Assembly: GCF_057098645.1 (NCBI RefSeq)
Contig: NZ_CM169472.1
Strand: one strand, 5' to 3'
Length of the DNA: 64,000 nucleotides
Below the pieces are notes generated by a model. The model was not told the origin of the DNA and did no database searches. It worked only from the letters and a program-made list of their open reading frames with translations. The position numbers and the translations under genes were made by a program. Shown here one piece after another: positions 39,586-64,000 of the stretch (within the stretch, counting starts at the first letter, position 1; each line of letters opens with the position of its first letter).

Positions 39586-39604
39586 TAGCACCTCCTGAAC
39601 AGGC

Positions 39605-40354: not shown

Positions 40355-40413
40355 TTCTTCCTAAAGTCGGGCCGTTGCGGTCCGATAATAATTTAATTCC
40401 CTCTTAACAGGTT

Positions 40414-41481: not shown

Positions 41482-41521
41482 TCGTCACTTAATAATTTTG
41501 GTTTACCGCGGGCGCGCGTTG

Positions 41522-43062: not shown

Positions 43063-43294
43063 AAACCTCATCATCAGCACCCTCAATCTGGACGAGTTGA
43101 CGCCTGATGATATCGATACCGACGCGCCGCTGTTTGGCGACGGTTTAGGGCTGGACTCTATCGATGCCCTGGAACTGGGACTGGCAGTAAAAAATGAGTA
43201 CGGCATCGTGCTCTCTGCGGAAAGCGAAGAGATGCGTCAGCACTTTTTCTCCGTCGCCACTCTGGCCTCTTTCATTGCTGCGCAACGTGCCTGA
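43037..43294 (+). CDS. Acyl carrier protein 1
   Basis: 85 aa; phosphopantetheine attachment motif GLDSIDALEL. Confidence 0.8.
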   Translation: MQALYLEIKNLIISTLNLDELTPDDIDTDAPLFGDGLGLDSIDALELGLAVKNEYGIVLSAESEEMRQHFFSVATLASFIAAQRA

Positions 43295-43305
43295 GGAAAG
43301 CCATC

Positions 43306-43557
43306 ATGACAGAACAACAAACCGTCTATCAGGAAGTCTCAGCCCTGCTGGTTAAGCTGTTTGAAATCGATCCGCAGGACATCAAACCTGAAGCGCGCCT
43401 GTACGAAGATCTGGAACTGGACAGCATCGACGCCGTTGACATGATTGTGCACCTGCAAAAGAAAACCGGTAAGAAAATCAAGCCGGAAGAGTTTAAAGCC
43501 GTGCGTACAGTCCAGGATGTCGTCGAGGCTGTAGAACGCCTGCTACAAGAAGCCTGA
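43306..43557 (+). CDS. Acyl carrier protein 2
   Basis: 83 aa; motif LELDSIDAVDM. Confidence 0.8.
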   Translation: MTEQQTVYQEVSALLVKLFEIDPQDIKPEARLYEDLELDSIDAVDMIVHLQKKTGKKIKPEEFKAVRTVQDVVEAVERLLQEA

Positions 43558-43561
43558 TCTG

Positions 43562-44143
43562 ATGTCGGGCATTCGCTCGCTACCGATGATTAAGCTGCTG
43601 ACTGGATTATTGCTGCTCGCCTGGCCGTTTGTGATTTGGTTTGGCTTAGCGCATAACGGCCTGCACTGGCTGTTACCGCTAATGGCGTTGCTGCTTTTGT
43701 TGCGTCTGCGCCAGACCCGTCGCCAGGCGGGGCCTTTACAAGCCGTCACGCAACTCGTCGCTGTCGTGGGCATCGCATTATGTGTCGCCAGCTTTATGTT
43801 GAAAACGCACCAGCTACTGCTGTTTTACCCGGTAGTGGTTAACGCGGTCATGCTGGCGGTTTTTGGCGGTTCGCTGTGGTCGGCAATGCCGATAGTTGAG
43901 CGGCTGGCGCGGTTGCAGGAGCCAGACCTCCCGGAAAAGGGCGTGCGCTATACCCGCCACGTCACGCAAATCTGGTGCGGCTTTTTCATCATTAACGGTG
44001 GAATTGCCCTCTTTACCGCGCTTTATGCCGATATGTCGTTATGGACCGCCTGGAACGGCATGATTGCTTATTTGTTGATGGGGACGTTAATGGCTGGTGA
44101 ATGGCTGCTGCGCCGTCAGGTGATGAAAAGAGATCGCGCATGA
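43562..44143 (+). CDS. Polytopic membrane protein of unknown function
   Basis: 193 aa with several hydrophobic helices; conserved position after the ACP pair. Confidence 0.55.
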   Translation: MSGIRSLPMIKLLTGLLLLAWPFVIWFGLAHNGLHWLLPLMALLLLLRLRQTRRQAGPLQAVTQLVAVVGIALCVASFMLKTHQLLLFYPVVVNAVMLAVFGGSLWSAMPIVERLARLQEPDLPEKGVRYTRHVTQIWCGFFIINGGIALFTALYADMSLWTAWNGMIAYLLMGTLMAGEWLLRRQVMKRDRA

Positions 44144-45501
44144 AGCAGACCTTACCGCTTGCACGCTGGCTGACTGCGCCACGCCCTGATGACACACCCA
44201 TTGCGTGGCTGGACGAAAGCTTCTGGACGCTGGGCGATTTGCGTCACGATGTCGCGCAACTTATCTGCCGCTTGCAGCAACAGCCGGGTGAACGCTGGGC
44301 GCTGTGCTTTGAGAACAGCTATCTGTTTATCGTTGCCCTGCTCGCCACGCTACACGCCGGAAAAACGCCGGTGCTTCCGGGGCATAACCGTGTTATCCAG
44401 CTTAACGAGCAACGTGAACTTTTTGATGGTGTGCTTAGCGACAGCGAACTTAACTGGCAAGGTTCATTGCTGTTGGTAGCAAGTTCTCCACAAATCGCGA
44501 CACAATCCTTCACCTTTTCCGCTATAGCGCCAGAGGCTTTTATCGAGCTGTTTACCTCTGGTTCCACGGGACAGCCGAAGCGGGTGATTAAACCTGTTCA
44601 TTTGCTGGACCGTGAAGCAGAACTGCTGGCTGAACGATTAGGCGCACGTCTGGCGGGTTGTCGTGTCGTCGGTTCCGTATTGCCGCAGCATTTGTACGGC
44701 CTGACTTTTCGCGTTTTCCTGCCAATGGCGCTGGGATTACCCCTACATGCCGCCATGCTCTGGTATGTCGAACAGTTTGCCGCGTTGAGTCATCAGCATC
44801 GCTATATCTTCATCAGCAGCCCGGCATTTTTGAAGCGTCTGGATACACAGATTTCCCCGCCCCCCGTTCAGGTGCTTCTCTCTGCTGGCGGTGAGCTACC
44901 GTGGCAGGACGTACAACACACCGCGAACTGGCTGCGCGTCTGGCCTGATGAAATCTACGGCAGCACGGAAACCGGCGTCATTGCCTGGCGTTACCGCGAT
45001 CAGGAGCAACGCCGCTGGCAGCCCTTCCCCGGTATGCAGTTCCGGGCCGAAGGGAATGCATTTCGTCTCTTTTCCCCGCTGATGACGGAAGATAACGGCC
45101 TGTTACTCGACGATATCTTACAGTTTAGCGAAGATGGTCAGTTCCATCTGATGGGGCGTCGCGGACGCATCGTTAAGATTGAAGAAAAACGTATTTCGTT
45201 GCAGGAAGTGGAACAACGTCTGCTGGCACTGGACGGTATTCGCGAGGCGGCGGCAGTTCCTGTTACGCGCGGCGGGCGTCAGAGCATAGGCGTTTTGCTG
45301 GTGCTGGATGACGAAGCTCGTCTGCAATGGCAGAACGGCGGCGGGCATAGCCAGGAAATGACCTGGCGGCGATTACTACGCCCGACGCTGGAGCCTGTTG
45401 CCATTCCGCGTTACTGGCGCGTTATTGATGAAATGCCAGTAAACAGTATGAACAAGCGTGTCTATGCGCAATTACAGGAGTTATTTCATGAAGCCCCATG
45501 A
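44140..45501 (+). CDS. AMP-dependent synthetase/ligase (acyl/aryl-adenylating enzyme)
   Basis: AMP-binding motif TSGSTGQPK; ATG 44140 overlaps previous stop (ATGA). Confidence 0.8.
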   Translation: MKQTLPLARWLTAPRPDDTPIAWLDESFWTLGDLRHDVAQLICRLQQQPGERWALCFENSYLFIVALLATLHAGKTPVLPGHNRVIQLNEQRELFDGVLSDSELNWQGSLLLVASSPQIATQSFTFSAIAPEAFIELFTSGSTGQPKRVIKPVHLLDREAELLAERLGARLAGCRVVGSVLPQHLYGLTFRVFLPMALGLPLHAAMLWYVEQFAALSHQHRYIFISSPAFLKRLDTQISPPPVQVLLSAGGELPWQDVQHTANWLRVWPDEIYGSTETGVIAWRYRDQEQRRWQPFPGMQFRAEGNAFRLFSPLMTEDNGLLLDDILQFSEDGQFHLMGRRGRIVKIEEKRISLQEVEQRLLALDGIREAAAVPVTRGGRQSIGVLLVLDDEARLQWQNGGGHSQEMTWRRLLRPTLEPVAIPRYWRVIDEMPVNSMNKRVYAQLQELFHEAP

Positions 45502-45841
45502 AATCGAGCGCCATCAGGCACAAGCGAATCACCTTGAGATTGTTTTGCATCTCAGGGCAGATCTGTTCTGGTTTCGCGGCCATTTTGCCGTGCAACCATT
45601 ACTCCCTGGCGTGGCACAAATCGACTGGGCAATGAGTTACGCGCTTGCCCTGCTCGCGCCTGGCTGGCGTTTTCACTCCATTCAGAACATAAAATTTCAG
45701 TCTCCGTTGCTGCCGGAAAACCGCGTCACGCTCACGCTTAACTGGCAGGAAGATCGCCAGATTCTGAGCTTTAGCTATCAGCGTCACGACGGTGACGCCC
45801 GCCACACCGCCAGTAGCGGGAAGATCCGCCTATGTCGGTAA
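45488..45841 (+). CDS. Hotdog-fold 3-hydroxyacyl-ACP dehydratase-like protein
   Basis: 117 aa from ATG 45488 (MKPHEIERHQ...); overlaps the ligase stop. Confidence 0.5.
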   Translation: MKPHEIERHQAQANHLEIVLHLRADLFWFRGHFAVQPLLPGVAQIDWAMSYALALLAPGWRFHSIQNIKFQSPLLPENRVTLTLNWQEDRQILSFSYQRHDGDARHTASSGKIRLCR

Positions 45842-47508
45842 ACTTTTCGCCCTGCGTGTTGATCCCCTGCTACAACCACGGCGCGATGATGCCGGGCGTG
45901 CTGGCGCGTCTTAAGCCATTTAATCTGCCCTGTATTGTGGTGGACGACGGCAGCGATGCCGCCACGCAACAGCAACTGGACAGTCTGCTTGCCGAGCAGC
46001 CTGGCGTGACTTTAATTCGCCTGGCAGAAAACGCAGGCAAAGGCGCGGCGGTGATGTACGGCTTACAGGCGGCGAAAGACGCGGGCTTCAGCCATGCGGT
46101 GCAGGTGGATGCTGACGGTCAACATGCGATTGAAGATATCCCCAAACTGCTGGCAGTCGCTGAACAACACCCTGCGGCGCTGATCTCCGGCCAGCCAATT
46201 TACGATGACTCCATCCCCCGCTCACGGCTTTACGGGCGCTGGGTCACCCACGTCTGGGTATGGATCGAAACGCTCTCCCTGCAACTGAAAGACAGCATGT
46301 GCGGTTTTCGCGTTTATCCGGTTGCGCCGACGCTGCAACTGGCAAAACACGCCACCATCGGCAAGCGGATGGATTTCGACACTGAAGTGATGGTGCGCCT
46401 CTACTGGCAGGGAAACACCAGCTATTTCGTGCCGACCCGCGTCACCTATCCACTGGACGGGCTTTCACATTTTGATGCCCTGAAAGATAACGTCCGCATC
46501 TCGCTCATGCACACGCGTCTGTTTTTCGGCATGTTGCCGCGTATTCCTTCACTGCTGATGCGCCGCTCTTCCAGCCACTGGGCGCGGCAGAGTGAAGTGA
46601 AAGGATTATGGGGAATGCGCCTGATGCTGCTGGTCTGGCGTCTGCTGGGAAGAACGGCGTTTAGCGCGCTGCTTTACCCGGTGGTGGGCGTCTACTGGCT
46701 CACTGCTTCTCGTGCGCGCAAAGCGTCGCAAGACTGGCTCGCCCGTGTACGACAGCATCAACCACAGGCGGCAAAACTCAACAGCTATCAGCACTTTCTA
46801 CGTTTCGGTAATGCCATGCTCGACAAAATCGCCAGCTGGCGCGGCGAGCTACAACTGGGGCGTGATGTGCTGTTTGCGCCAGGCGCAGAAGCGGCGCTTG
46901 ACGTCCGCGATCCGCGCGGCAAATTGCTGCTGGCCTCGCATCTTGGCGATGTGGAAGTGTGCCGGGCGCTGGCAAAAATTCAGGGCTACAAAACCATTAA
47001 CGCGCTGGTGTTTAGCGAAAACGCCCAACGCTTTAAACAGATAATGCAGGAGATGGCCCCGCAGGCTGGTATCAACCTGATGCCGGTAACAGATATCGGC
47101 CCGGAAACCGCCATCCTGCTAAAAGATAAGCTGGATAACGGCGAATGGGTGGCGATTGTCGGCGACCGCATCGCCGTCAACCCGCAACGCGGCGGCGACT
47201 GGCGCGTCTGCTGGAGTCCGTTTATGGGCCAGCCTGCGCCTTTCCCACAGGGGCCATTTATTCTCGCGTCTATTTTGCGCTGCCCGGTGAATCTGATTTT
47301 CGCCCTACGCCAGCACGGCAAGCTGCATATTCACTGCGAAACCTTTGCCGACCCGCTGCTGTTGCCGCGTGGCGAACGCCAACAGGCGCTGCAAAACGCT
47401 ATCGACCACTACGCCGCGCGTCTGGAACATTACGCGCTCCAGTCGCCCCTCGACTGGTTTAATTTTTTCGATTTCTGGCAACTGCCGGAAATTCAGGACA
47501 AGGAGTAA
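45832..47508 (+). CDS. Fusion protein: family-2 glycosyltransferase N-domain plus lipid-A-type (LpxL/HtrB-like) acyltransferase C-domain
   Basis: 558 aa; N-terminus CVLIPCYNHG...VVDDGSDA (GT2 signature); C-terminal half resembles lauroyl/myristoyl acyltransferases. Confidence 0.65.
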   Translation: MSVNFSPCVLIPCYNHGAMMPGVLARLKPFNLPCIVVDDGSDAATQQQLDSLLAEQPGVTLIRLAENAGKGAAVMYGLQAAKDAGFSHAVQVDADGQHAIEDIPKLLAVAEQHPAALISGQPIYDDSIPRSRLYGRWVTHVWVWIETLSLQLKDSMCGFRVYPVAPTLQLAKHATIGKRMDFDTEVMVRLYWQGNTSYFVPTRVTYPLDGLSHFDALKDNVRISLMHTRLFFGMLPRIPSLLMRRSSSHWARQSEVKGLWGMRLMLLVWRLLGRTAFSALLYPVVGVYWLTASRARKASQDWLARVRQHQPQAAKLNSYQHFLRFGNAMLDKIASWRGELQLGRDVLFAPGAEAALDVRDPRGKLLLASHLGDVEVCRALAKIQGYKTINALVFSENAQRFKQIMQEMAPQAGINLMPVTDIGPETAILLKDKLDNGEWVAIVGDRIAVNPQRGGDWRVCWSPFMGQPAPFPQGPFILASILRCPVNLIFALRQHGKLHIHCETFADPLLLPRGERQQALQNAIDHYAARLEHYALQSPLDWFNFFDFWQLPEIQDKE

Positions 47509-47511
47509 AGG

Positions 47512-47934
47512 GTGCTTAACGATCCCCGATTTACCGCTGAAGTCGAGCTGACCATTCCCTTTCACGACGTCGATATGATGGGCGTGGCCTGGCACGGTAA
47601 CTATTTTCGCTACTTTGAAGTGGCCCGCGAGGCGCTGCTCAACCAGTTCAATTACGGCTATCGGCAGATGAAAGAGTCCGGTTATTTGTGGCCAGTGGTC
47701 GATGCGCGGGTGAAATATCGCCACGCCCTCACCTTTGAGCAACGCATCCGCGTGCGTGCGCATATCGAAGAGTTCGAAAACCGTCTGCGGATTGGCTATC
47801 AGATTTTCGATGCCGAAACGGGCAAACGCGCCACCACCGGATACACCATTCAGGTCGCGGTCGACGAGCAAAGTCGCGAACTGTGCTTTGTCAGCCCCGA
47901 TATTCTGTTTGAACGCATGGGAGTCAAATCATGA
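47512..47934 (+). CDS. Hotdog-fold acyl-CoA/ACP thioesterase (4HBT/YbgC-like)
   Basis: 140 aa; motif HDVDMMGVAWHGNYFRYFE. Confidence 0.7.
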   Translation: MLNDPRFTAEVELTIPFHDVDMMGVAWHGNYFRYFEVAREALLNQFNYGYRQMKESGYLWPVVDARVKYRHALTFEQRIRVRAHIEEFENRLRIGYQIFDAETGKRATTGYTIQVAVDEQSRELCFVSPDILFERMGVKS

Positions 47935-48536
47935 AATTTTTACCGCTGCTGGCGCTGCTGATTAGCCCGTTTGTGAGCGCCCTGAGCCTGGACGATCTTC
48001 AGCAACGCTTTACCGAACAGCCGGTGATCCGCGCCCATTTCGATCAAACCCGGACGATTAAAGATCTGCCGCAGCCGCTGCGATCTCAGGGCCAGATGTT
48101 GATCACCCGCGACCAGGGGCTGTTGTGGGATCAAACCTCACCGTTCCCCATGCAACTATTACTGGACGATAAACGCATGGCGCAGGTGATCAACGGTCAG
48201 CCGCCGCAAATCATCACGGCAGAAAATAACCCGCAGATGTTCCAGTTTAACCACCTGCTGCGCGCGCTGTTCCAGGCCGATCGCAAAGTGCTGGAACAAA
48301 ACTTCCGCGTCGAATTTGCCGACAAAGGCGAAGGCCGCTGGACGCTGCGCCTGACGCCGACCACCACGCCACTGGATAAAATTTTCAACACCATCGATCT
48401 CGCCGGGCAAACCTATCTGGAGAGCATTCAGCTTAATGATAAACAGGGCGATCGCACCGATATTGCTCTTACCCAACATCAACTGACACCAGCGCAACTG
48501 ACCGATGACGAACGCCAACGTTTTGCCGCCCAGTAA
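47931..48536 (+). CDS. LolA-like outer-membrane lipoprotein carrier protein
   Basis: 201 aa; signal peptide MKFLPLLALLISPFVSA; size and pattern of LolA/LolB-fold proteins. Confidence 0.55.
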   Translation: MKFLPLLALLISPFVSALSLDDLQQRFTEQPVIRAHFDQTRTIKDLPQPLRSQGQMLITRDQGLLWDQTSPFPMQLLLDDKRMAQVINGQPPQIITAENNPQMFQFNHLLRALFQADRKVLEQNFRVEFADKGEGRWTLRLTPTTTPLDKIFNTIDLAGQTYLESIQLNDKQGDRTDIALTQHQLTPAQLTDDERQRFAAQ

Positions 48537-50823
48537 ACGCCCCGCGCTGTTATGGGGGCTAGTCTGCCTGGTCATGGCGGCGGCGTTGCTGATCCTGCTG
48601 CCGCAATCACGGCTGAACAGTAGCGTGCTGGCTATGTTACCCAAACAGGCGATGGGCGATATTCCCCCAGCGCTGAATGACGGCTTTATGCAGCGTCTGG
48701 ACCGCCAACTGGTGTGGCTGGTCAGCCCCGGTAAAGAGGCTAATCCCAGGGTCGCTCAGGAGTGGCTGACGCAGCTGCAAAAATCCGCTGCGCTTGGCGA
48801 CATTAAAGGGCCAATGGATGCCGCCAGCCAGCAGGCGTGGGGAGCGTTTTTCTGGCAGCACCGCAACGGCCTGATTGACCACGACACCCGCGCCCGCCTG
48901 CAAAACGGCGGCGAAGCGCAGGCGCAGTGGATCCTCTCCCAGCTTTATTCTGCATTCTCCGGGGTAAGCGGCAAGGAGCTGCAAAACGATCCGCTGATGT
49001 TAATGCGCGGCTCGCAGCTGGCGATGGCAAAAAATGGCCAGCGTTTGCGGCTGATGGACGGCTGGCTGGTGACGCAGGATCCCCAGGGCAACTACTGGTA
49101 TCTGCTGCACGGCGAACTGGCGGGATCGTCGTTTGATATGCAGCAAACCCACCAGCTCATCACGACCCTGAATACGCTGGAAAAGGATCTGAAAACGCGT
49201 TACCCACAGGCGCAGTTGCTCTCGCGCGGCACGGTATTTTACAGCGATTACGCCAGTCAACAGGCGAAGCAGGATATCTCAACCCTGGGCGTGGCAACGC
49301 TGCTGGGGGTGATATTGCTGATTGTGGCGGTGTTCCGCTCTTTGCGTCCGTTGCTGCTTTGCATGATTTCCATCGGCATCGGCGCGCTGGCGGGAACGGT
49401 CGCCACATTGTTGATTTTCGGTGAATTACACCTGATGACGCTGGTGATGAGCATGAGCGTTATCGGCATTTCCGCTGACTACACACTCTATTATCTCACC
49501 GAGCGGATGGTGCACGGCAACGACGTTTCGCCGTGGCAAAGCCTGGCGAAAGTACGCAATGCCTTGCTACTGGCGCTGCTCACCACCGTGGCGGCATATC
49601 TGATTATGATGCTCGCCCCCTTCCCCGGTATCCGCCAGATGGCGATTTTTGCCGCCATCGGGTTGAGCGCCTCTTGTCTGACCGTCCTGTTCTGGCATCC
49701 GTGGCTGTGCCGTGGCCTGCCGGTGCGCCCGGTTCCGGCGATGGCGCTGATGCTACGCTGGCTGGCAGCGTGGCGGCGCAATAAAAAACTGTCGCTGGGT
49801 CTGCCCGTCGCGCTGGCGCTGTTTTCGCTGGCGGGGATGTCAATGCTGCGCGTCGATGACGATATCTCGCAGTTACAGGCGCTGCCGCAGCATATTCTGG
49901 CGCAGGAGAAAGCCATTACCGCCCTGACCGGACAAAGCGTCGATCAAAAATGGTTTGTAGTTTACGGCGACTTCCCACAGCAAACATTGCGGCGGCTGGA
50001 GACATTTACCACCTCACTGGAGAAAGCGAAAAAAGACGGCCTTATCAGCAACTACCGCACCATTCCGCTGAACTCCCTGGCGCGGCAGGAGGAAGATTTA
50101 GACCTGCTGAAAACGGCGGCCCCGACAGTAACAAAAGCGCTGCAAAATGCCGGGCTGACGGCAGTGAACCCGGATCTCAACGCCATGCCAGTGAACGTTG
50201 ATGAATGGCTGGCAAGCCCCGCCAGTGAAGGCTGGCGTCTGCTGTGGCTGACGCTGGAAAACGGCGAAAGCGGCGTACTGGTGCCGGTTGAAGGGGTTAA
50301 AAGTAGCGCGTTGATGCAGGAAATCGCCACATATTACCCTTGCGGCATTGCCTGGGTTGATCGCAAAAGCACCTTTGATGAATTGTTCGCACTTTACCGC
50401 TACGTCTTAACCGGCTTGTTGCTGGTGGCGCTGGCAGTGATTGCCTGCGGCGCAGTGGCCCGTCTCGGCTGGCGCAAAGGGCTTATCAGCCTGGTGCCTT
50501 CGGTGCTTTCGCTGGGCTGTGGTCTGGCGGTGCTGGCGATGAGCGGGCAGGCGGTGAATCTCTTTTCGCTGCTGGCGCTGGTGCTGGTGCTTGGCATCGG
50601 TATCAACTACACGCTGTTTTTCAGTAATCCGCGCGGTACACCGTTAACTTCGCTACTGGCGATCGCGCTGGCAATGCTCACCACCTTGCTGACGCTGGGA
50701 ATGTTGGTATTCAGCGCCACCCAGGCCATCAGCAGTTTTGGCATTGTGCTGGTGAGCGGTATTTTCACCGCCTTCCTGCTTTCGCCGCTGGCTATGCCCG
50801 ATAAAAAGAGAACAAAAAAATGA
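48505..50823 (+). CDS. MMPL/RND-superfamily exporter
   Basis: 772 aa; two blocks of TM helices separated by soluble loops; exact start uncertain (overlaps previous gene by 32 nt). Confidence 0.7.
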   Translation: MTNANVLPPSKRPALLWGLVCLVMAAALLILLPQSRLNSSVLAMLPKQAMGDIPPALNDGFMQRLDRQLVWLVSPGKEANPRVAQEWLTQLQKSAALGDIKGPMDAASQQAWGAFFWQHRNGLIDHDTRARLQNGGEAQAQWILSQLYSAFSGVSGKELQNDPLMLMRGSQLAMAKNGQRLRLMDGWLVTQDPQGNYWYLLHGELAGSSFDMQQTHQLITTLNTLEKDLKTRYPQAQLLSRGTVFYSDYASQQAKQDISTLGVATLLGVILLIVAVFRSLRPLLLCMISIGIGALAGTVATLLIFGELHLMTLVMSMSVIGISADYTLYYLTERMVHGNDVSPWQSLAKVRNALLLALLTTVAAYLIMMLAPFPGIRQMAIFAAIGLSASCLTVLFWHPWLCRGLPVRPVPAMALMLRWLAAWRRNKKLSLGLPVALALFSLAGMSMLRVDDDISQLQALPQHILAQEKAITALTGQSVDQKWFVVYGDFPQQTLRRLETFTTSLEKAKKDGLISNYRTIPLNSLARQEEDLDLLKTAAPTVTKALQNAGLTAVNPDLNAMPVNVDEWLASPASEGWRLLWLTLENGESGVLVPVEGVKSSALMQEIATYYPCGIAWVDRKSTFDELFALYRYVLTGLLLVALAVIACGAVARLGWRKGLISLVPSVLSLGCGLAVLAMSGQAVNLFSLLALVLVLGIGINYTLFFSNPRGTPLTSLLAIALAMLTTLLTLGMLVFSATQAISSFGIVLVSGIFTAFLLSPLAMPDKKRTKK

Positions 50824-51404
50824 TCAAACCCACATTCTGGCGAGCGTTTGCCCTGACCGCTACGCTTATCCTCACCGGCTGTAGCCACTCGCAACCAGAA
50901 CAGGAAGGCCGCCCGCAAGCGTGGCTGCAACCTGGCTCGCGCATCACGCTGCCTGCGCCGGGGATTTCACCCGCCGTCAATTCCCAGCAACTGTTGACCG
51001 GCAGCTTCAACGGCAACACCCAGTCGCTGCTAGTGATGCTTAACGCCGACGACCAGAAAATCACCCTTGCCGGACTGTCGTCGGTCGGCATTCGCCTGTT
51101 TCTGGTGACCTACGATGCGCAAGGGCTACGCGCCGAGCAATCCATCGTCGTCCCACAGTTACCGCCCGCAAGTCAGGTACTGGCTGACGTGATGCTCAGC
51201 CACTGGCCGATTAGCGCCTGGCAACCGCAACTTCCCGCAGGATGGACACTTCGCGACAACGGTGACAAACGCGAGCTGCGTAACGCCAGCGGCAAACTGG
51301 TCACGGAAATAACCTATCTGAATCGCAAGGGCAAACGCGTGCCAATCAGCATTGAGCAGCATGTCTTTAAATACCACATCACCATTCAATACTTAGGTGA
51401 CTGA
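50820..51404 (+). CDS. Lipoprotein of unknown function (DUF3261-like)
   Basis: 194 aa; lipobox LTGCSHS. Confidence 0.55.
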   Translation: MIKPTFWRAFALTATLILTGCSHSQPEQEGRPQAWLQPGSRITLPAPGISPAVNSQQLLTGSFNGNTQSLLVMLNADDQKITLAGLSSVGIRLFLVTYDAQGLRAEQSIVVPQLPPASQVLADVMLSHWPISAWQPQLPAGWTLRDNGDKRELRNASGKLVTEITYLNRKGKRVPISIEQHVFKYHITIQYLGD

Positions 51405-51405
51405 T

Positions 51406-52575
51406 ATGATTTATATTTCCGCCGTCGGCATGATCAACGCCCTGGGAAATAACCTTGACGATATCGCAGCCAACCTGACTCGCGGTGTCGCCCCCGGAAT
51501 GCGCCCACGCGCAGGCTGGTTGCAGGGGCATCCGCAGGCGGTCCTGGCTGGCGTGGATGGCGAGCTTCCGCTTATCCCGGAAAAATTCGCTGCGCATCGC
51601 TCGCGCAACAATCAGATCCTGCTGGCGGCGCTGGCGCAGCTCCAGCCGCAGGTTGATGACGCTATCGCGAAATATGGTCGCCAGCGCATCGCGATTGTAC
51701 TTGGCACCAGCACCTCCGGCCTGCATGAAGGCGACACGCACGTTAACCTGCGCACCCACGGGCAGCCGAGCACCACATGGCACTACGCGCAACAGGAACT
51801 CGGCGATCCGTCGCGTTTTCTCAGCCACTGGCTGGCGCTCGACGGCCCGGCCTATACCCTTTCAACCGCCTGCTCTTCCAGCGCCAGAGCGATAATCAGC
51901 GGGCGCAGGCTTATCGAAGCGGGGCTGGTCGATGCCGCCATTGTGGGTGGCGCAGACACCCTGAGCCGGATGCCGATTAACGGTTTTCACAGCCTCGAAT
52001 CGCTGTCGCCAACCTTATGTCAGCCGTTTGGTCGTGACCGCGCAGGTATCACCATTGGTGAAGGGGCGGGGCTAATGCTGCTGACCCGGGAACCGCAGCC
52101 CATCGCGTTGCTGGGCGTTGGTGAATCGAGCGACGCTTACCATATTTCAGCCCCGCATCCGCAGGGCGAAGGAGCGATCCGCGCTATTAATCAGGCGCTG
52201 ACCGATGCGCAGCTTACGCCAGATGACGTCGGCTATATCAACCTGCACGGCACCGCCACACAACTCAACGATCAGATTGAATCAATGGTGGTTAACGCCC
52301 TGTTTGGCGAACGCGTACCGTGCAGCTCCACCAAACATTTGACCGGACACACGCTGGGCGCAGCGGGCATTACCGAGGCGGCAATTAGTATGTTGATTTT
52401 ACAGCGTGATTTACCGCTGCCCGCTCAGGACTTCAGCCTGTCGCCGCGCGATCCCACGCTGCCACCGTGTGGCATTATCGAAAAACCGCAGCCGCTGGCA
52501 CGTCCGGTGATCCTGTCCAATTCCTTCGCCTTTGGCGGCAATAACGCCAGCATTCTGCTCGGGAGGGTTTCGTGA
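51406..52575 (+). CDS. Beta-ketoacyl-ACP synthase (active KS)
   Basis: ORF track 51397..52575; start moved to ATG giving MIYISAVGMINALGN; active-site Cys in TACSSS, His motifs HGTATQ and GHTLGAAG. Confidence 0.8.
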   Translation: MIYISAVGMINALGNNLDDIAANLTRGVAPGMRPRAGWLQGHPQAVLAGVDGELPLIPEKFAAHRSRNNQILLAALAQLQPQVDDAIAKYGRQRIAIVLGTSTSGLHEGDTHVNLRTHGQPSTTWHYAQQELGDPSRFLSHWLALDGPAYTLSTACSSSARAIISGRRLIEAGLVDAAIVGGADTLSRMPINGFHSLESLSPTLCQPFGRDRAGITIGEGAGLMLLTREPQPIALLGVGESSDAYHISAPHPQGEGAIRAINQALTDAQLTPDDVGYINLHGTATQLNDQIESMVVNALFGERVPCSSTKHLTGHTLGAAGITEAAISMLILQRDLPLPAQDFSLSPRDPTLPPCGIIEKPQPLARPVILSNSFAFGGNNASILLGRVS

Positions 52576-53036
52576 GCCACTATTTATCCCCCGGCGCTTA
52601 TCTGCCCCACGACGCGCCCATGTTACTGCTGGAAGACGTGGTGAGCGTCAGCGATGACAGCGCGGTGTGCCGCGTAACGGTCTCGCCCAGCGGCGTACTG
52701 GCACCGTTCCTCGACCCGGACGGCAATCTACCCGGCTGGTTTGCCCTTGAACTGATGGCGCAAACCGTCGGTGTCTGGTCTGGCTGGCATCGCCGCCAGC
52801 AGGGCAAAAACAGTATTGAGTTAGGGATGATACTGGGCGCGCGTGAATTGCTTTGCACCACTGGCATTCTGCCCGCAGGCCAGACGCTGACCATTACCGT
52901 CAAACTGCTGATGCAAGACGATCGCTTCGGCAGTTTTGAGTGCAGCATCAACGACGGCGAGGCGACGGGCCGCATTAACACCTTCCAGCCGACCGCGGAA
53001 GAACTTACCACCCTGTTTCAACAAGGAGCGTCCTGA
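52572..53036 (+). CDS. Hotdog-fold dehydratase
   Basis: 154 aa; GTG start overlapping the KS stop. Confidence 0.55.
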   Translation: MSHYLSPGAYLPHDAPMLLLEDVVSVSDDSAVCRVTVSPSGVLAPFLDPDGNLPGWFALELMAQTVGVWSGWHRRQQGKNSIELGMILGARELLCTTGILPAGQTLTITVKLLMQDDRFGSFECSINDGEATGRINTFQPTAEELTTLFQQGAS

Positions 53037-53767
53037 TGAGTCGTTCAGTTCTGGTTACTGGTGCCAGCAAAGGCATTGGTCGCGCCATCGCCTGCCAACT
53101 GGCGGCAGACGGCTTTAACATTGGCGTTCACTATCACCGTGACGCCACAGGCGCTCAGGAAACGCTGAATGCCATTGTCGCCAACGGGGGTAACGGGCGT
53201 TTGCTCAGTTTCGACGTCGCAAACCGCGAACAGTGTCGGGAAGTGCTGGAGCATGAGATCGCGCAACACGGTGCCTGGTACGGCGTGGTCAGTAACGCCG
53301 GGATCGCCCGCGATGCCGCTTTTCCGGCTTTAAGCGATGACGACTGGGATGCGGTGATCCACACCAACCTCGACAGTTTCTACAACGTCATTCAGCCGTG
53401 CATTATGCCGATGATCGGCGCACGCCAGGGTGGGCGCATCATCACGCTATCCTCGGTTTCCGGCGTAATGGGCAATCGCGGCCAGGTGAATTACAGCGCT
53501 GCCAAAGCCGGAATTATCGGCGCAACAAAAGCGCTGGCTATCGAACTCGCGAAGCGCAAAATCACCGTCAACTGCATCGCGCCGGGGCTTATTGATACCG
53601 GGATGATCGAAATGGAAGAGAGCGCTCTGAAAGAGGCAATGTCGATGATCCCCATGAAACGTATGGGCCAGGCGGAAGAAGTTGCCGGGCTTGCCAGTTA
53701 TTTAATGTCTGATATTGCGGGTTACGTCACCCGCCAGGTTATTTCCATCAACGGAGGGATGTTATGA
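53036..53767 (+). CDS. 3-oxoacyl-ACP reductase (FabG-like SDR)
   Basis: TGASKGIGRAIA Rossmann motif and YSAAKAG catalytic motif. Confidence 0.85.
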   Translation: MSRSVLVTGASKGIGRAIACQLAADGFNIGVHYHRDATGAQETLNAIVANGGNGRLLSFDVANREQCREVLEHEIAQHGAWYGVVSNAGIARDAAFPALSDDDWDAVIHTNLDSFYNVIQPCIMPMIGARQGGRIITLSSVSGVMGNRGQVNYSAAKAGIIGATKALAIELAKRKITVNCIAPGLIDTGMIEMEESALKEAMSMIPMKRMGQAEEVAGLASYLMSDIAGYVTRQVISINGGML

Positions 53768-54993
53768 CACGTCGCGTAGTGATTACAGGAATGGGCGGCG
53801 TGACTGCCTTTGGTGAAAACTGGCAGGACGTTTCTGCACGCTTACTGGCGTATGAAAATGCGGTGCGCAAAATGCCGGAGTGGCAGGTCTACGATGGCCT
53901 GCACACCCTGCTTGGCGCGCCTGTTGATGATTTCACGCTACCGGAGCACTACACCCGCAAGCGTATCCGTGCGATGGGCCGCGTGTCGCAAATGTCGACC
54001 CGTGCCAGCGAGCTGGCGTTAGAGCAGGCAGGGTTGATTGGCGATCCGATATTAACCAGCGGCGAAACGGGCATTGCGTACGGTTCATCGACCGGCAGTA
54101 CCGGCCCGGTAAGCGAGTTCGCCACCATGCTGACGGAAAAGCACACCAATAACATCACTGGCACCACCTATGTGCAGATGATGCCGCACACCACCGCCGT
54201 TAATACTGGCCTCTTTTTCGGCCTGCGCGGGCGGGTGATCCCAACCTCCAGCGCCTGTACTTCCGGCAGCCAGGCAATCGGTTATGCGTGGGAAGCCATT
54301 CGCCACGGTTATCAAACGGTGATGGTTGCTGGTGGTGCCGAAGAGTTATGTCCTTCAGAAGCAGCGGTATTTGATACGCTTTTCGCCACCAGCCAGCACA
54401 ATGATGCGCCGAAAACCACACCTTCACCGTTCGATGAAAACCGCGACGGGCTGGTGATTGGTGAAGGCGCAGGTACGCTCATTCTCGAAGAACTGGAGCA
54501 CGCCAAAGCGCGCGGCGCGACCATTTACGGTGAAATCGTCGGCTTTGCGACGAACTGCGACGCGGCACATATTACCCAGCCGCAGCGCGAAACCATGCAG
54601 TATTGTATGGAGCAATCGCTGAAAATCGCCGGGTTAAGCGCACAAGATATCGGCTATATTTCAGCGCATGGTACGGCGACCGATCGCGGTGATATGGCAG
54701 AAAGTCTGGCGACAGCAACCATTTACGGTGATAATGTGCCGCTCTCCTCGCTGAAAAGTTATTTTGGTCATACGCTTGGTGCCTGTGGCGCGCTCGAAGC
54801 CTGGATGAGTCTGCAAATGATGCGCGAAGGTTGGTTTGCGCCTACGCTAAACCTGAATAAACCAGACCCGAATTGTGGCGCGCTGGATTACATCATGCAT
54901 GAAGCCCGCAAGGTTGATTGTGAGTTTTTGCAGAGTAACAACTTTGCCTTTGGCGGCATTAATACATCCATCATCATTAAACGTTGGCCCTGA
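53764..54993 (+). CDS. Beta-ketoacyl-ACP synthase II-like (FabF-like)
   Basis: 409 aa; Cys in SSACTSGS, His motifs HGTATD and GHTLGACGA. Confidence 0.85.
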   Translation: MTRRVVITGMGGVTAFGENWQDVSARLLAYENAVRKMPEWQVYDGLHTLLGAPVDDFTLPEHYTRKRIRAMGRVSQMSTRASELALEQAGLIGDPILTSGETGIAYGSSTGSTGPVSEFATMLTEKHTNNITGTTYVQMMPHTTAVNTGLFFGLRGRVIPTSSACTSGSQAIGYAWEAIRHGYQTVMVAGGAEELCPSEAAVFDTLFATSQHNDAPKTTPSPFDENRDGLVIGEGAGTLILEELEHAKARGATIYGEIVGFATNCDAAHITQPQRETMQYCMEQSLKIAGLSAQDIGYISAHGTATDRGDMAESLATATIYGDNVPLSSLKSYFGHTLGACGALEAWMSLQMMREGWFAPTLNLNKPDPNCGALDYIMHEARKVDCEFLQSNNFAFGGINTSIIIKRWP

Positions 54994-54994
54994 T

Positions 54995-55582
54995 ATGTAT
55001 CGGATAGTTCTGGGGAAAGTTTCGACCTTAAGCGCAGCTCCACTGCCACCGGGTTTACGCGAGCAAGCACCGCAAGGTCCACGACGCGAACGCTGGCTGG
55101 CGGGGCGTGCATTGCTTTCGCACACGCTTTCCCCGCTACCGGAGATCATCTATGGCGAACAAGGCAAACCTGCATTTGCGCCGGAAACGCCGCTATGGTT
55201 CAACTTAAGCCATAGCGGTGACGATATCGCTCTGCTGTTGAGTGATGAAGGCGAAGTCGGCTGCGATATCGAAGTGATTCGCCCGCGCGCCAACTGGCGC
55301 TGGCTGGCGAACGCCGTATTCAGCCTCGGGGAACACGCTGAGATGGACGCCGTGCATCCTGATCAGCAACTGGAAATGTTCTGGCGCATCTGGACGCGCA
55401 AAGAAGCCATCGTTAAACAGCGTGGTGGCAGCGCCTGGCAAATCGTCAGCGTAGACAGCACCTATCACTCCTCGCTGTCAGTCAGCCATTGTCAGCTAGA
55501 AAATTTAAGCCTGGCGATCTGCACCCCCACCCCCTTTACGCTCACCGCCGACAGTGTGCAATGGATCGATTCAGTTAACTGA
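54995..55582 (+). CDS. acpT: 4'-phosphopantetheinyl transferase (holo-ACP synthase AcpT)
   Basis: ORF track 54875..55582; start moved to MYRIVLGKVSTLSAAPLPPGL; PPTase motifs (FNLSHSGD, WTRKEAIVK). Confidence 0.85.
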   Translation: MYRIVLGKVSTLSAAPLPPGLREQAPQGPRRERWLAGRALLSHTLSPLPEIIYGEQGKPAFAPETPLWFNLSHSGDDIALLLSDEGEVGCDIEVIRPRANWRWLANAVFSLGEHAEMDAVHPDQQLEMFWRIWTRKEAIVKQRGGSAWQIVSVDSTYHSSLSVSHCQLENLSLAICTPTPFTLTADSVQWIDSVN

Positions 55583-55627
55583 TCCGCCCACCCGACTGCC
55601 CATCTATTGATCCAGAACAGGTAATCA

Positions 55628-55655
55628 GTATGACGAATACTTAAAATCGTCATAC
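55628..55655 (+). promoter_or_regulatory. NikR operator in the nikA promoter
   Basis: GTATGA-N16-TCATAC dyad (GTATGACGAATACTTAAAATCGTCATAC) 38 nt upstream of nikA. Confidence 0.7.
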
Positions 55656-55692
55656 TTATTTCCGCCATCTATTTTAATCCATTGGGGTTACC

Positions 55693-57267
55693 ATGCTCTC
55701 CACACTCCGCCGCACTCTATTTGCGCTGCTGGCTTGTGCGTCTTTTATCGTCCATGCCGCTGCGCCAGATGAAATTACCACCGCCTGGCCGGTGAATGTC
55801 GGGCCACTAAACCCGCACCTTTACACGCCTAACCAGATGTTCGCCCAGAGCATGGTTTATGAACCGCTGGTGAAATATCAGGCTGATGGTTCGGTGATCC
55901 CGTGGCTGGCAAAAAGCTGGACTCATTCAGAAGATGGTAAAACCTGGACCTTCACCCTGCGTGATGACGTGAAATTCTCCAACGGCGAACCGTTTGATGC
56001 AGAGGCAGCGGCAGAAAACTTCCGCGCAGTGCTCGATAACCGTCAACGTCACGCCTGGCTGGAGCTGGCAAACCAGATTGTTGATGTCAAAGCACTCAGT
56101 AAAACAGAGCTGCAAATCACCCTGAAAAGCGCCTACTATCCTTTCCTGCAAGAACTGGCCCTGCCGCGCCCTTTCCGCTTTATCGCCCCCTCGCAGTTTA
56201 AAAACCATGAAACCATGAACGGAATTAAAGCGCCGATTGGCACCGGGCCGTGGGTTTTGCAGGAATCGAAACTGAATCAGTACGATGTCTTCGTCCGTAA
56301 CGAAAACTACTGGGGCGAAAAGCCGGCGATTAAGAAGATCACTTTTAACGTCATCCCGGACCCGACGACCCGCGCGGTAGCGTTTGAAACTGGCGATATC
56401 GACCTGCTGTACGGAAACGAAGGGTTATTACCGCTCGATACCTTCGCCCGCTTTAGCCAGAACCCGGCTTACCATACCCAACTGTCACAGCCGATCGAAA
56501 CCGTGATGTTGGCGCTTAATACCGCCAAAGCCCCCACCAATGAGCTGGCAGTACGTGAAGCTCTTAATTACGCGGTAAACAAAAAATCGCTGATTGATAA
56601 CGCGTTGTATGGCACCCAGCAGGTCGCCGACACCCTGTTTGCCCCTTCTGTGCCCTACGCCAACCTCGGCCTGAAACCGCGCCAGTACGATCCGCAGAAA
56701 GCGAAAGCGTTGCTGGAAAAAGCCGGTTGGACGCTGCCTGCGGGCAAAGACATCCGCGAGAAAAATGGTCAGCCGCTGCACATTGAACTTTCGTTCATCG
56801 GCACCGATGCGTTAAGTAAATCGATGGCGGAAATCATTCAGGCTGATATGCGCCAGATTGGCGCAGATGTCTCGCTGATTGGCGAAGAAGAGAGCAGTAT
56901 CTATGCGCGTCAGCGCGACGGTCGTTTTGGCATGATTTTCCACCGCACCTGGGGCGCGCCATACGACCCACACGCCTTCCTGAGTTCAATGCGCGTACCG
57001 TCGCACGCTGACTTCCAGGCACAGCAAGGATTAGCCGACAAGCCGCTGATTGATAAAGAGATCGGCGAAGTGCTGGCGACACATGACGAAACGCAACGTC
57101 AGGCGCTGTATCGCGACATTCTGACCCGTCTGCATGACGAGGCGGTTTATCTGCCTATCAGTTACATCTCAATGATGGTGGTATCAAAACCGGAGCTGGG
57201 TAACATCCCCTACGCGCCGATCGCCACCGAAATTCCGTTCGAACAGATTAAACCGGTGAAACCTTAA
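55693..57267 (+). CDS. nikA: Nickel ABC transporter periplasmic binding protein
   Basis: 524 aa with signal peptide; first gene of nikABCDER. Confidence 0.9.
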
Positions 57268-58207
57268 TGTTGCGTTACGTATTACGCCGCTTTCTGCTGC
57301 TGATCCCGATGGTGCTCGCCGCCTCGGTGATCATTTTTCTGATGCTGCGCCTCGGTACCGGCGACCCGGCGCTCGATTATTTGCGTCTGTCTAACCTGCC
57401 GCCGACGCCGGAGATGCTGGCCTCTACCCGCACCATGCTCGGACTGGATCAGCCGCTGTACGTCCAGTACGGTACCTGGTTGTGGAAGGCGCTGCATCTT
57501 GACTTTGGTATCTCATTCGCCAGCCAACGCCCAGTGCTGGACGATATGCTGAACTTCCTGCCTGCTACGCTGGAACTGGCGGGTGCGGCGCTGGTATTAA
57601 TTCTGCTCACTTCCGTACCGCTCGGTATCTGGGCGGCGCGCCATCGTGACCGTCTGCCGGATTTCGCCGTACGTTTCATCGCGTTTCTTGGCGTGTCGAT
57701 GCCTAACTTCTGGCTGGCGTTTTTACTGGTGATGGCGTTTTCGGTGTATCTGCAATGGCTACCCGCGATGGGTTACGGCGGCTGGCAGCACATCATTTTG
57801 CCTGCGGTTTCCATTGCCTTTATGTCGCTGGCGATTAACGCGCGTTTACTGCGCGCCAGTATGTTGGACGTCGCCGGTCAGCGTCACGTCACCTGGGCGC
57901 GTCTGCGCGGCCTGAACGACAAACAGACCGAACGTCGCCACATCCTGCGCAATGCCTCGCTGCCGATGATCACCGCCGTGGGGATGCACATCGGCGAACT
58001 GATTGGCGGGACGATGATTATCGAAAACATCTTTGCCTGGCCGGGCGTCGGGCGCTATGCGGTGTCGGCGATTTTTAACCGTGACTATCCGGTGATCCAG
58101 TGCTTTACGCTGATGATGGTGGTGGTTTTTGTGGTCTGTAATTTGATTGTCGATTTGCTCAACGCCGCGCTGGACCCGCGCATTCGTCGTCATGAAGGAG
58201 CGCACGC

Positions 58208-58211
<4 letters not shown>
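57267..58211 (+). CDS. nikB: Nickel ABC transporter permease
   Basis: 314 aa membrane ORF. Confidence 0.9.
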
Positions 58212-61015
<2,804 letters not shown>

Positions 61016-61212
61016 CACCTCCCAACGCGCCGTTATTTCCTCACGGCGCAGTAAATTCCTGCCAAACTTCGACTTCCATCACATTTTTTTGATCACGATT
61101 TGGTCCCTCAAAATGTGAGACGCTTCGATCCTCTTTTTCGCCTGTTCACCTACTATACGCTGAAGTTGTCCATGATTGTCCATAGACAACTGTAAATGTT
61201 CAGGTGCGCGCC

Positions 61213-61959
61213 ATGAAATCATTAAGTAAGTCGTCACAAATACCGCTCTATCAACAAGTGGTGGAGTGGATAAGAGAAAGTATTTATACCGGAGATCTGG
61301 TGGAAGACGATCGCATCCCTTCGGAATACCAGATTATGGATATGCTGGAAGTCAGTCGGGGAACCGTTAAAAAAGCGGTCGCCCAACTGGTAAAAGAAGG
61401 CGTGTTGATTCAGGTCCAGGGCAAGGGAACATTTGTCAAAAAAGAGAACGTGGCCTATCCGTTAGGTGAAGGATTATTGTCATTCGCGGAATCGCTGGAA
61501 AGCCAGAAAATACATTTTACCACTGAAGTTATTACGTCACGGATTGAACCGGCTAATCGTTATGTGGCAGAGAAATTAAGAATAACGCCCGGTCAGGATA
61601 TTCTTTACCTTGAACGCTTACGCTCAATTGGTGATGAAAAAGCGATGCTGATAGAGAACCGTATCAATATTGAGCTATGCCCCGGTATTGCGGAAATCGA
61701 TTTTAATCAACACAATTTATTTCCAACAATAGAAAGTTTGTCGCAAAGAAAAATTCGTTACTCGGAAAGTCGCTATGCCGCGCGATTAATTGGTAATGAA
61801 CGTGGTCATTTTTTAGATATCAGTGAAGACGCACCCGTTTTGCATCTGGAGCAGTTAGTCTTTTTCTCCCGAGGATTACCCATTGAGTTTGGCAACGTCT
61901 GGTTAAAAGGAAATAAATATTATCTTGGCACCGTACTGCAACGGCGGGAAGTGAGTTAA
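61213..61959 (+). CDS. GntR-family (HutC/UTRA subfamily) transcriptional regulator
   Basis: ORF track 61204..61959; N-terminal winged HTH (PSEYQIMDMLEVSRGTVKKAVAQLVKEGVL) plus C-terminal effector domain. Confidence 0.75.
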   Translation: MKSLSKSSQIPLYQQVVEWIRESIYTGDLVEDDRIPSEYQIMDMLEVSRGTVKKAVAQLVKEGVLIQVQGKGTFVKKENVAYPLGEGLLSFAESLESQKIHFTTEVITSRIEPANRYVAEKLRITPGQDILYLERLRSIGDEKAMLIENRINIELCPGIAEIDFNQHNLFPTIESLSQRKIRYSESRYAARLIGNERGHFLDISEDAPVLHLEQLVFFSRGLPIEFGNVWLKGNKYYLGTVLQRREVS

Positions 61960-61983
61960 GTACACTTTTTTAAGAGGAATAAA

Positions 61984-62457
61984 ATGCAAGGCATACACTT
62001 TCAGGAAAATTATATTCAACGACTTCCGGCAGGGTTAAGCGTTGAACAGATCATCCGTCAGTTAGCGCAACCGTTGGTTGCCGCCGAGCTGGTCGTCCCT
62101 GATTTTGCCGATCACGTACTGAAACGTGAGGCGACGTACCCAACGGGGCTGCCTACCGAACCACCGTGCGTCGCTATTCCGCACACGGACCATAAACATG
62201 TCAGGCACAATGCAATTGCCGTCGGCATCCTGCCGGAACCGGTAGAGTTTGCCGATATGGGCGGCGATCCTGACCCCGTACCTGTCAGGGTGATTTTTTT
62301 GCTCGCCTTAAGCGAAAGTAATAAACAATTAAATGCCCTGGGCTGGATTATGGAAATGATTCAGGATACGCCCTTTATGCAAGCCCTGCTTGCGATGGAA
62401 ACAACAGAAATACACACAGTAATCTTAAACAAAATGAAAGAACGAGGTGAAATATGA
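61984..62457 (+). CDS. PTS EIIA component, mannitol/fructose (type 2) class, galactitol-like
   Basis: 157 aa; phosphorylatable His in AIPHTDHKH. Confidence 0.7.
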   Translation: MQGIHFQENYIQRLPAGLSVEQIIRQLAQPLVAAELVVPDFADHVLKREATYPTGLPTEPPCVAIPHTDHKHVRHNAIAVGILPEPVEFADMGGDPDPVPVRVIFLLALSESNKQLNALGWIMEMIQDTPFMQALLAMETTEIHTVILNKMKERGEI

Positions 62458-62735
62458 GTCAAACCATTTTATTTGTCTGCGCCACGGGTATTGCCACATC
62501 CACGGCGGTAACAGAAAAAGTCATGGAATATTGTAAAGAGCACGCTCTTAACGTCAATTATTCCCAAACCAACGTTGCCTCTTTACCTGGAAATACTGAT
62601 GGCGTAGCACTGGTAGTCTCAACGACTAAAGTGCCTTATGAACTCGACGTCCCGGTAGTTAACGGCTTGCCGATTATTACCGGTATTGGCGAAGAGAAAG
62701 TACTGGCGCAAATTGTTTCGATCCTTAAAAATTAA
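62454..62735 (+). CDS. PTS EIIB component, galactitol-type
   Basis: 93 aa; N-terminal phosphocysteine motif ILFVCATGIATS. Confidence 0.75.
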   Translation: MSQTILFVCATGIATSTAVTEKVMEYCKEHALNVNYSQTNVASLPGNTDGVALVVSTTKVPYELDVPVVNGLPIITGIGEEKVLAQIVSILKN

Positions 62736-62811
62736 TTAATAATAATTAATTTCAACCCACTCCATCAGGCGCTAACGCGAGGTGCGCTCTCGCCTGAAAA
62801 AGAGGTTTATT

Positions 62812-64000
62812 ATGAACGATATCGCGCATACCCTCTATAATATTGTGCAATATATATTGGGATTTGGGCCGACGGTAATGTTGCCGTTGGTGTTATTTAT
62901 TCTTGCTCTCTGTTTTAAAGTAAAACCCGCTAAAGCCTTACGTTCGTCATTAACAGTCGGCATTGGTTTTGTCGGTATTTATGCCATTTTCGATATTCTG
63001 ACCAGCAATGTCGGGCCAGCGGCCCAGGCGATGGTTGAACGCACCGGAATTAATTTACCGGTGGTAGATTTAGGCTGGCCGCCGCTTTCCGCTATTACAT
63101 GGGGTTCGCCAATTGCCCCGTTTGTTATTCCCCTGACCATTCTGATTAACGTGGCGATGCTGGCGTTAAATAAAACCCGTACCGTTGACGTAGATATGTG
63201 GAACTACTGGCATTTTGCCCTTGCTGGTACGTTGGTTTATTACAGCACCGGCAGCCTGTTCTTTGGTTTGCTGGCGGCGGCGATTGCTGCGGTGGTAGTA
63301 CTTAAACTCGCCGACTGGTCTGCGCCACTGGTACAAAAATACTTTGGACTGGAAGGGATCTCATTGCCGACGCTCTCTTCGGTGGTGTTCTTCCCGGTCG
63401 GTCTGCTGGTCGACAAAATCATCGACCATATCCCCGGCCTCAATCGTATTCATATCGACCCGGAAACCGTACAGAAAAAGTTTGGCATCTTCGGCGAACC
63501 GATGATGGTTGGCACTATTCTGGGCATACTGCTCGGCGTGATTGCAGGATACGATTTCAAAAAAGTGTTGCTGCTTGGCATCAGCATTGGCGGTGTGATG
63601 TTCATCCTGCCACGCATGGTTCGCATCCTGATGGAAGGTTTATTACCGCTGTCTGAAGCCATTAAAAAGTATCTCAATGCCAAATACCCTGACCGTGACG
63701 ATCTCTATATCGGACTGGATATCGCCGTTGCCGTAGGTAATCCGGCGATTATCTCCACCGCCCTGCTGCTAACGCCAATCTCGGTCTTTATCGCGTTTGT
63801 CCTCCCAGGTAATGAAGTCCTGCCGCTTGGCGACCTTGCCAACCTGGCGGTAATGGCGTCGATGATTGCTTTAGCCAGCCGTGGCAATATTTTCCGCACC
63901 GTTCTGGCGGCGATCCCGGTGATTATTGCCGACCTGTGGATTGCGACTAAAATCGCACCGTTTATTACCGGCATGGCGAAAGACGTTAACTTCAAATTTG
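62812..64000 (+). CDS. PTS EIIC permease, galactitol family (5' part; continues beyond window end)
   Basis: My own translation from ATG 62812 is open to position 64000 (MNDIAHTLYNIVQYILGFGPTVMLPLVLFILALCFKV...); not in the ORF track because no stop lies inside the window. Confidence 0.75.
   Translation, partial: MNDIAHTLYNIVQYILGFGPTVMLPLVLFILALCFKVKPAKALRSSLTVGIGFVGIYAIFDILTSNVGPAAQAMVERTGINLPVVDLGWPPLSAITWGSPIAPFVIPLTILINVAMLALNKTRTVDVDMWNYWHFALAGTLVYYSTGSLFFGLLAAAIAAVVVLKLADWSAPLVQKYFGLEGISLPTLSSVVFFPVGLLVDKIIDHIPGLNRIHIDPETVQKKFGIFGEPMMVGTILGILLGVIAGYDFKKVLLLGISIGGVMFILPRMVRILMEGLLPLSEAIKKYLNAKYPDRDDLYIGLDIAVAVGNPAIISTALLLTPISVFIAFVLPGNEVLPLGDLANLAVMASMIALASRGNIFRTVLAAIPVIIADLWIATKIAPFITGMAKDVNFKF

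Follow-up and report, generated by a model that had tools for sequence, protein, structure and literature searches.

Does the 28-bp dyad in front of nikA still provide nickel-responsive control in an Escherichia coli chromosome in which a large biosynthetic island lies upstream? The stretch of DNA analyzed here (64 kb, referred to as the window) is E. coli chromosome whose nearest relatives are O145:H28 strains. Positions 55000-56400 are 100% identical to many of these, and the window is ~99.94% identical overall to strain RM9872, although the two are not collinear, differing by small indels and an extra IS5-like element. The question was addressed by reading the site itself, comparing its surroundings with those of K-12, reconstructing the promoter that it would control, and following the dyad across E. 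coli and other bacteria.

The dyad upstream of nikA and its K-12 counterpart

Read directly from the window sequence, positions 55628-55655 (GTATGACGAATACTTAAAATCGTCATAC) match GTATGA-N16-TCATAC with 0 mismatches. In a pattern scan of the 64-kb window this site was the sole match, even when up to two mismatches were allowed; the exact dyad appeared in 0 of 100 dinucleotide-preserving shuffles, and its analytical chance expectation in the window is ~64000/4^12 = 0.004. The pattern with up to two mismatches is not significant alone (one found versus 1.41 expected in the 64-kb window), so the case for the dyad depends on its being exact and on its context. Each arm of the perfect inverted repeat, GTATGACG-N12-CGTCATAC, is 8 bp long, and the repeat is nested in a 44-bp imperfect palindrome (55620-55663) with 17-nt arms, 55620-55636 and 55647-55663, that are 88% complementary. 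The 16-bp spacer of the operator (55634-55649) is the same as in K-12 and places the half-site centers 22 bp apart, or about two helical turns. The operator lies 37 nt 5′ of the nikA ATG, within the 110-bp gap between acpT and nikA.

The genes and the island around the site are as follows, with identities given at the DNA level unless stated otherwise.

39582-54974, plus strand: aryl-polyene-type biosynthetic island, 15.4 kb, between yhhT and acpT; junctions from BLAST comparison with K-12
54995-55582, plus strand: acpT, the immediate upstream neighbor in the window and in K-12; 98.8% identity to K-12
55693-57267, plus strand: nikA, periplasmic nickel-binding protein; 97.5% identity to K-12
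57267-60608, plus strand: nikB, nikC, nikD and nikE, ABC permease and ATPase subunits; 94.9-98.8% identity to K-12, with equal lengths
60614-61015, plus strand: nikR, Ni(II)-responsive ribbon-helix-helix repressor; 133 of 133 residues identical to K-12 NikR

The identities of NikA, NikR, and AcpT were confirmed by NCBIfam equivalog models, with the nikA product scoring 840 bits against TIGR02294 (cutoff, 393) and NikR scoring 235 bits against its equivalog model (cutoff, 83). Each of nikA-nikE and nikR either matches an equivalog model or carries the corresponding annotation. All of nikABCDE is full-length and 95-99% identical to K-12, and the gene order yhhT-acpT-nikABCDE-nikR is also that of K-12 MG1655. 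A 201-bp segment running from the end of acpT across the gap into the start of nikA is 100% identical to MG1655. In an ungapped comparison with K-12, the acpT-nikA intergenic region shows 0 of 110 differences, while the genes differ by 1.2-5.1% and the segment from acpT through nikR is 97.4% identical.

The E. coli K-12 nikABCDE operator, or NikR box, was reportedly defined by Chivers and Sauer in 2000, and a NikR-operator co-crystal (2HZV) is said to have been described by Schreiter and colleagues in 2006. Ni(II)-NikR binds the palindromic GTATGA-N16-TCATAC of the nikABCDE promoter with nanomolar affinity (PMC7055735), and the tetramer places two ribbon-helix-helix domains on the two operator halves in a closed cis conformation (PMC7055735; PMC2875016). 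The NikR encoded in the window has the same sequence as the proteins in PDB entries 1q5v, 2hza, 2hzv, and 3od2, and residues H76, H87, H89, C95, E30, D34, K64, and R65, whose roles are described elsewhere (PMC7055735; PMC2875016), are all present.

An earlier note on this DNA had reported a canonical GTATGA-N16-TCATAC dyad upstream of nikA and had proposed a motif scan and a comparison of spacing with K-12 as checks. The reading holds: the dyad is exact at 55628-55655, 37 nt 5′ of nikA; the scan, run as the GTATGA-N16-TCATAC pattern, gives a single exact match in the 64-kb window; and K-12 has the identical 16-bp spacer, half-sites, and complete intergenic region. The window thus shares with K-12 the 28-bp sequence, the 110-bp intergenic region, the 37-nt distance to nikA, acpT upstream, and NikR itself. 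Nothing differs at the site; the differences are the 15.4-kb island upstream of acpT and the other genes 3′ of nikR. Judged from its sequence, the site is the known NikR operator of K-12, carried without change in an O145:H28-like chromosome. The dyad is almost certainly the operator of the nickel-uptake operon nikABCDE, at which bound Ni-NikR would block RNA polymerase from a promoter that FNR would activate.

Divergence from K-12 is uneven within the operon, since nikD (95.7%) and nikE (94.9%), at 59041-60608, are farther from K-12 than nikA, nikB, and nikC (97.5-98.8%); this higher divergence may mark a recombination patch. On the 3′ side, K-12 homology stops 2 bp short of the nikR end (window 61013-64000). 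K-12 has rhsB there, in place of which 61013-64000 carries genes for a GntR-family regulator and PTS IIA, IIB, and IIC components. Farther 3′ of the PTS genes, RM9872 encodes an FGGY kinase, HPr, a class II aldolase, and a HicAB toxin-antitoxin pair.

Proposed promoter anatomy and repression

The elements proposed for the nik promoter, together with the parts of the operator, are arranged as follows.

55607-55620, plus strand: FNR box TTGATCCAGAACAG, with 2 mismatches to TTGAT-N4-ATCAA; site for activation of the nik promoter (class II)
55620-55663, no strand: extended imperfect palindrome, 17-nt arms, 88% complementary
55628-55655, no strand: NikR operator, 28 bp; exact dyad, same as K-12, operator sequence published (PMC7055735)
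55628-55633, no strand: left half-site GTATGA, about -26 to -21 from the inferred start; unchanged in all E. coli variants sampled
55642-55647, plus strand: inferred -10 hexamer TAAAAT within the operator spacer, at -12 to -7 if the start is 55654
55650-55655, no strand: right half-site TCATAC, about -4 to +2 from the inferred start; unchanged in all E. coli variants sampled
55654, plus strand: inferred nikA transcription start (FNR box center 55613.5 + 40.5)

The FNR box is invariant across the divergent E. coli sampled, and nikABCDE was found to be directly FNR-activated from a site at -40.5 (Myers et al. 2013; PMC3688515). Combining the position of the box with this published distance puts +1 at ~55654 and TAAAAT at -12 to -7. 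The operator would then span about -26 to +2, overlapping both the -10 hexamer and the start of the FNR-dependent nik promoter. This placement is consistent with the work of Chivers and Sauer, who are said to have described an operator overlapping the -10/+1 region of the nik promoter. A generic sigma-70 scan of 55400-55800 called no promoter; this outcome, to be expected of a class II activator-dependent FNR promoter with no -35 element, does not count against a promoter but lends it no positive support either.

With the operator in this position, the following mechanism may be proposed. Under anaerobic conditions with low nickel, FNR at the box centered near -40.5 would activate the nik promoter. 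Once the cytoplasm holds enough Ni(II), NikR would fill the four high-affinity sites of its tetramer (His76′, His87, His89, Cys95), and its two ribbon-helix-helix domains would then lie on one face of the DNA, one at each of the GTATGA and TCATAC half-sites. NikR bound to an operator that encloses the -10 element would occlude RNA polymerase and turn nickel import off. Nickel regulation in the O145-like strain would be expected to work as it does in K-12.

Nitrate input has also been attributed to this promoter, and repression of nik by nitrate through NarL was reportedly described by Rowe and colleagues in 2005. A perfect match to the NarL heptamer (TACYYMT) is present as TACTTAT at 55653-55659, overlapping the right half-site and the inferred +1, and TACTTAA at 55638-55644 in the operator spacer matches the heptamer at 6 of 7 positions, such matches being common by chance.

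The relation of the operator to nikR is less direct. The earlier note took the dyad to indicate intact nickel-responsive autoregulation; the operator, its spacing, the intergenic region, and NikR are indeed those of K-12, but the word autoregulation is loose, as the operator controls nikABCDE. The nikR gene starts 5 nt after nikE, and no terminator was predicted between the two in a scan of 60300-61250, which makes read-through from the NikR-controlled promoter plausible. Thus, nikR is probably co-transcribed in part with nikABCDE. In addition, nikR is reported to have its own weak constitutive promoter, a finding ascribed to De Pina and co-workers in 1999. The promoter scan of 60300-61250, upstream of nikR, gave no consensus promoter, and a second nikR promoter was not located there. 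Autoregulation in the strict sense would accordingly be only partial.

Conservation of the operator within and beyond E. coli

Of 5426 complete E. coli genomes, 5425 have the acpT-nikA intergenic region, which is at least 99% identical in 5198. In 5299 of the 5426 genomes, the operator-bearing 30-mer has an uninterrupted identical match of 28 bases or more, and a further 110 genomes carry a single A-to-G change in the spacer, at the counterpart of 55637. The most divergent alleles were drawn from the lowest-ranking matches of a permissive search, the operator alleles of 16 genomes lying outside the inspected set, and among those sampled the single operator difference was the spacer A-to-G change. 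No change in a half-site, the FNR box, or the spacing, and no spacer-length variant, occurred among the E. coli alleles inspected. Divergent lineages accumulate substitutions 5′ of the FNR box and also differ at a single position separating this box from the operator and at a single leader position. The operator is close to invariant in E. coli. Among the inspected alleles, half-sites and spacing are constant and a spacer base is free to vary, a pattern that fits a regulator such as NikR that reads the half-sites and the distance between them.

To follow the dyad beyond E. coli, ~100,000 species-representative genomes were scanned for the 8-bp-arm form GTATGACG-N12-CGTCATAC; the looser 7-bp-arm consensus GTATGAY-N14-RTCATAC was set aside, as thousands of chance matches were expected for it. 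The 8-bp-arm scan returned 67 loci against ~69 expected by chance, and true sites were sorted by gene context. A NikA or NikR homolog lies within 600 nt of the dyad at 20 of the 67 loci. In five Escherichia species-level genomes (the E. coli representative and four others) the dyad lies between acpT and nikA, and in Kosakonia arachidis GTATGACGAATAAATAAAATCGTCATAC precedes the nikA gene of a nikABCDE-nikR cluster by 28 nt. In Alphaproteobacteria, Gemmatimonadota, and others, the dyad is located 20-130 nt 5′ of nikR or 5′ of a gene for a NikA-like binding protein. Further matches precede a CbiM/NikM gene and a gene for a TonB-dependent receptor, and a DUF4198 gene next to nikR flanks the dyad at 2 of the 20 nik-adjacent loci. 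Beyond E. coli, the 8-bp-arm dyad is strongly linked to nikA, nikR, or further genes for Ni/Co uptake.

Two features that were not imposed by the 8-bp-arm search distinguish the nik-adjacent loci. An A at position 9 or a T at position 20 is present in 24 of 32 nik-adjacent half-sites versus 18 of 94 in the other matches (Fisher p = 2e-8), and the AT content of the spacer is 0.78 in the former and 0.55 in the latter. These shared, unimposed features separate real NikR boxes from chance palindromes and place the window site firmly among the real ones.

Comparative genomics of proteobacterial NikR boxes was reportedly carried out by Rodionov and co-workers. Relative to the NikR boxes of other Proteobacteria, the window site has the same inverted-repeat layout and overall length. 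The enterobacterial consensus is GTATGAT-N13/14-ATCATAC (PMC545781), whereas the Delta-proteobacterial consensus given in the same paper differs, being GTGTTAC-N13/14-GTAACAC. Position with respect to the regulator gene differs as well: in many non-enterics the box lies 5′ of nikR, providing true autoregulation, or 5′ of other transporters, whereas the E. coli box stands before nikA, with nikR at the distal end. Helicobacter pylori NikR belongs to the same family of ribbon-helix-helix Ni-sensing tetramers and follows the same two-half-site logic; however, HpNikR is pleiotropic, serving as both activator and repressor with a looser, different consensus at many promoters (PMC7055735; PMC2875016), while the window site is of the strict, single-target E. 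coli type.

Two of the Escherichia genomes carry insertions in the nikA leader. Escherichia sp. MOD1-EC7003 has an ERIC-like element of ~110 bp just 3′ of the operator, with 149 nt between operator and nikA, and Escherichia sp. E1V33 has ~430 bp of REP/BoxC-like repeats at the corresponding place, with 471 nt between operator and nikA. Despite these insertions, the operator and the FNR box are intact in both.

The upstream island and rival readings of the palindrome

By BLAST, the island stands where K-12 has 38 bp of its own sequence separating yhhT from acpT. Its genes encode a methyltransferase, a ketosynthase/chain-length factor, two carrier proteins, an AMP-ligase, dehydratases (including one of the ApeP family), a glycosyltransferase, a LolA-like protein, an MMPL protein, FabG2, and KAS proteins, a content that identifies it as an aryl-polyene-type cluster. 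In E. coli it reaches at least 80% coverage in 566 of 5426 genomes, among them O157:H7 EDL933, where the similar cluster lies beside acpT. Its distribution in other Escherichia species is patchy: Escherichia sp. E1V33 has it, and E. albertii, E. whittamii, and Escherichia sp. MOD1-EC7003, like K-12, lack it. An additional ~260 genomes match only part of the island probe, at ~90% identity and elsewhere in the chromosome; these partial matches are probably a paralogous CFT073-type APE cluster.

The last island gene (KAS) ends 2 nt before the acpT ATG, and the right junction lies 20 bp before that ATG and 654 bp from the operator, leaving the promoter untouched. The statement in the earlier note that the upstream neighbor is now the large biosynthetic island therefore does not hold for the operator, whose neighbor is acpT, as in K-12. 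The "now" in that statement is itself questionable: according to the account of De Lay & Cronan 2006 contained in PMC8253772, AcpT activates the carrier proteins of the EDL933 cluster, and the K-12 acpT is "orphaned." Activation of the island carrier proteins by AcpT would make acpT functionally the last gene of the island. As far as the sequence can tell, the O145:H28-like strain appears to keep the textbook nickel-homeostasis switch unchanged, and the neighboring island does not seem to have disturbed the nik control site.

Of the other explanations considered for the palindrome, the one that survives best is that it is, or also is, an RNA hairpin that terminates or attenuates transcripts from acpT and the island operon. 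Taken as RNA, 55620-55663 has a predicted fold of -15.6 kcal/mol (z = -5.5), with UUAUUU 3′ of it; no second hairpin or terminator-like structure occurs between the acpT stop and nikA, and the island genes and acpT are co-directional with nikA. The z-score is not independent evidence, however, because any palindromic operator folds, and the predicted hairpin has an AU-rich stem, a 10-12-nt loop, and a short, interrupted U-tract (UUAUUU). A search of 55400-55800 for rho-independent terminators, with a G+C-rich stem, a 3-8 nt loop, and a T run, called none, and Rfam covariance models gave no match at E <= 1 in 54900-56100. The occurrence of the same dyad in other taxa directly 5′ of nikR or uptake genes, irrespective of what precedes it, fits a DNA-binding role, and conserved arms with a free spacer sequence are what a protein operator predicts, against a reading as a hairpin only. 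This explanation is consequently unlikely, and a terminator or hairpin role is possible as a secondary one at most.

In island-bearing strains, the ~15-kb island operon and acpT might form one transcript, with a 3′ end set by the hairpin or by a Ni-NikR roadblock, or leaking into nik. This is very unlikely, but, if true, nickel status would be coupled to termination of the island/acpT transcript, or island transcription would leak into nik without FNR.

In island-bearing strains, read-through from the island and acpT could alternatively leave the operator intact while weakening or bypassing nickel control of nik, through transcription that depends on neither FNR nor NikR. The acpT-nikA gap contains no canonical terminator, and acpT is contiguous with the island operon. 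On the other hand, K-12 has the same acpT-nikA layout and sequence, and NikR/FNR control is well documented there; the island junction leaves acpT and the intergenic region untouched; this region is conserved to the same degree whether or not a genome carries the island; and a bound repressor could itself act as a roadblock. Escape from nickel control by this route is very unlikely.

That the dyad is a functionless chance palindrome, for which the lack of enrichment of the pattern with up to two mismatches in the window could be cited, has a probability of essentially nil and was ruled out by the shuffles (no exact match in 100), identity to the experimentally defined operator, near-invariance in 5425 genomes, and strong cross-taxon linkage to nik genes. 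The preferred reading is thus the NikR operator described above.

Several other features of the window are accessory. A 1.19-kb insertion relative to RM9872, at ~6879-8073, has terminal inverted repeats GGAAGGTGCGAA(T/C)AAG and a 326-aa minus-strand ORF (7026-8006); it looks like IS5 and sits where the RM9872 annotation places a frameshifted tssD pseudogene. Between zntA and tusA, an insertion of ~424 bp relative to K-12 (34929-35352) contains a 105-aa hypothetical ORF on the minus strand (34961-35278). Based on the RM9872 annotation, an AtaT/AtaR toxin-antitoxin pair lies between panM and livJ at ~23880-24690 (RM9872 annotation coordinates, within about 9 nt) and ugpB and livF are separated by a hypothetical gene, the pair and this gene being accessory insertions relative to the core layout.
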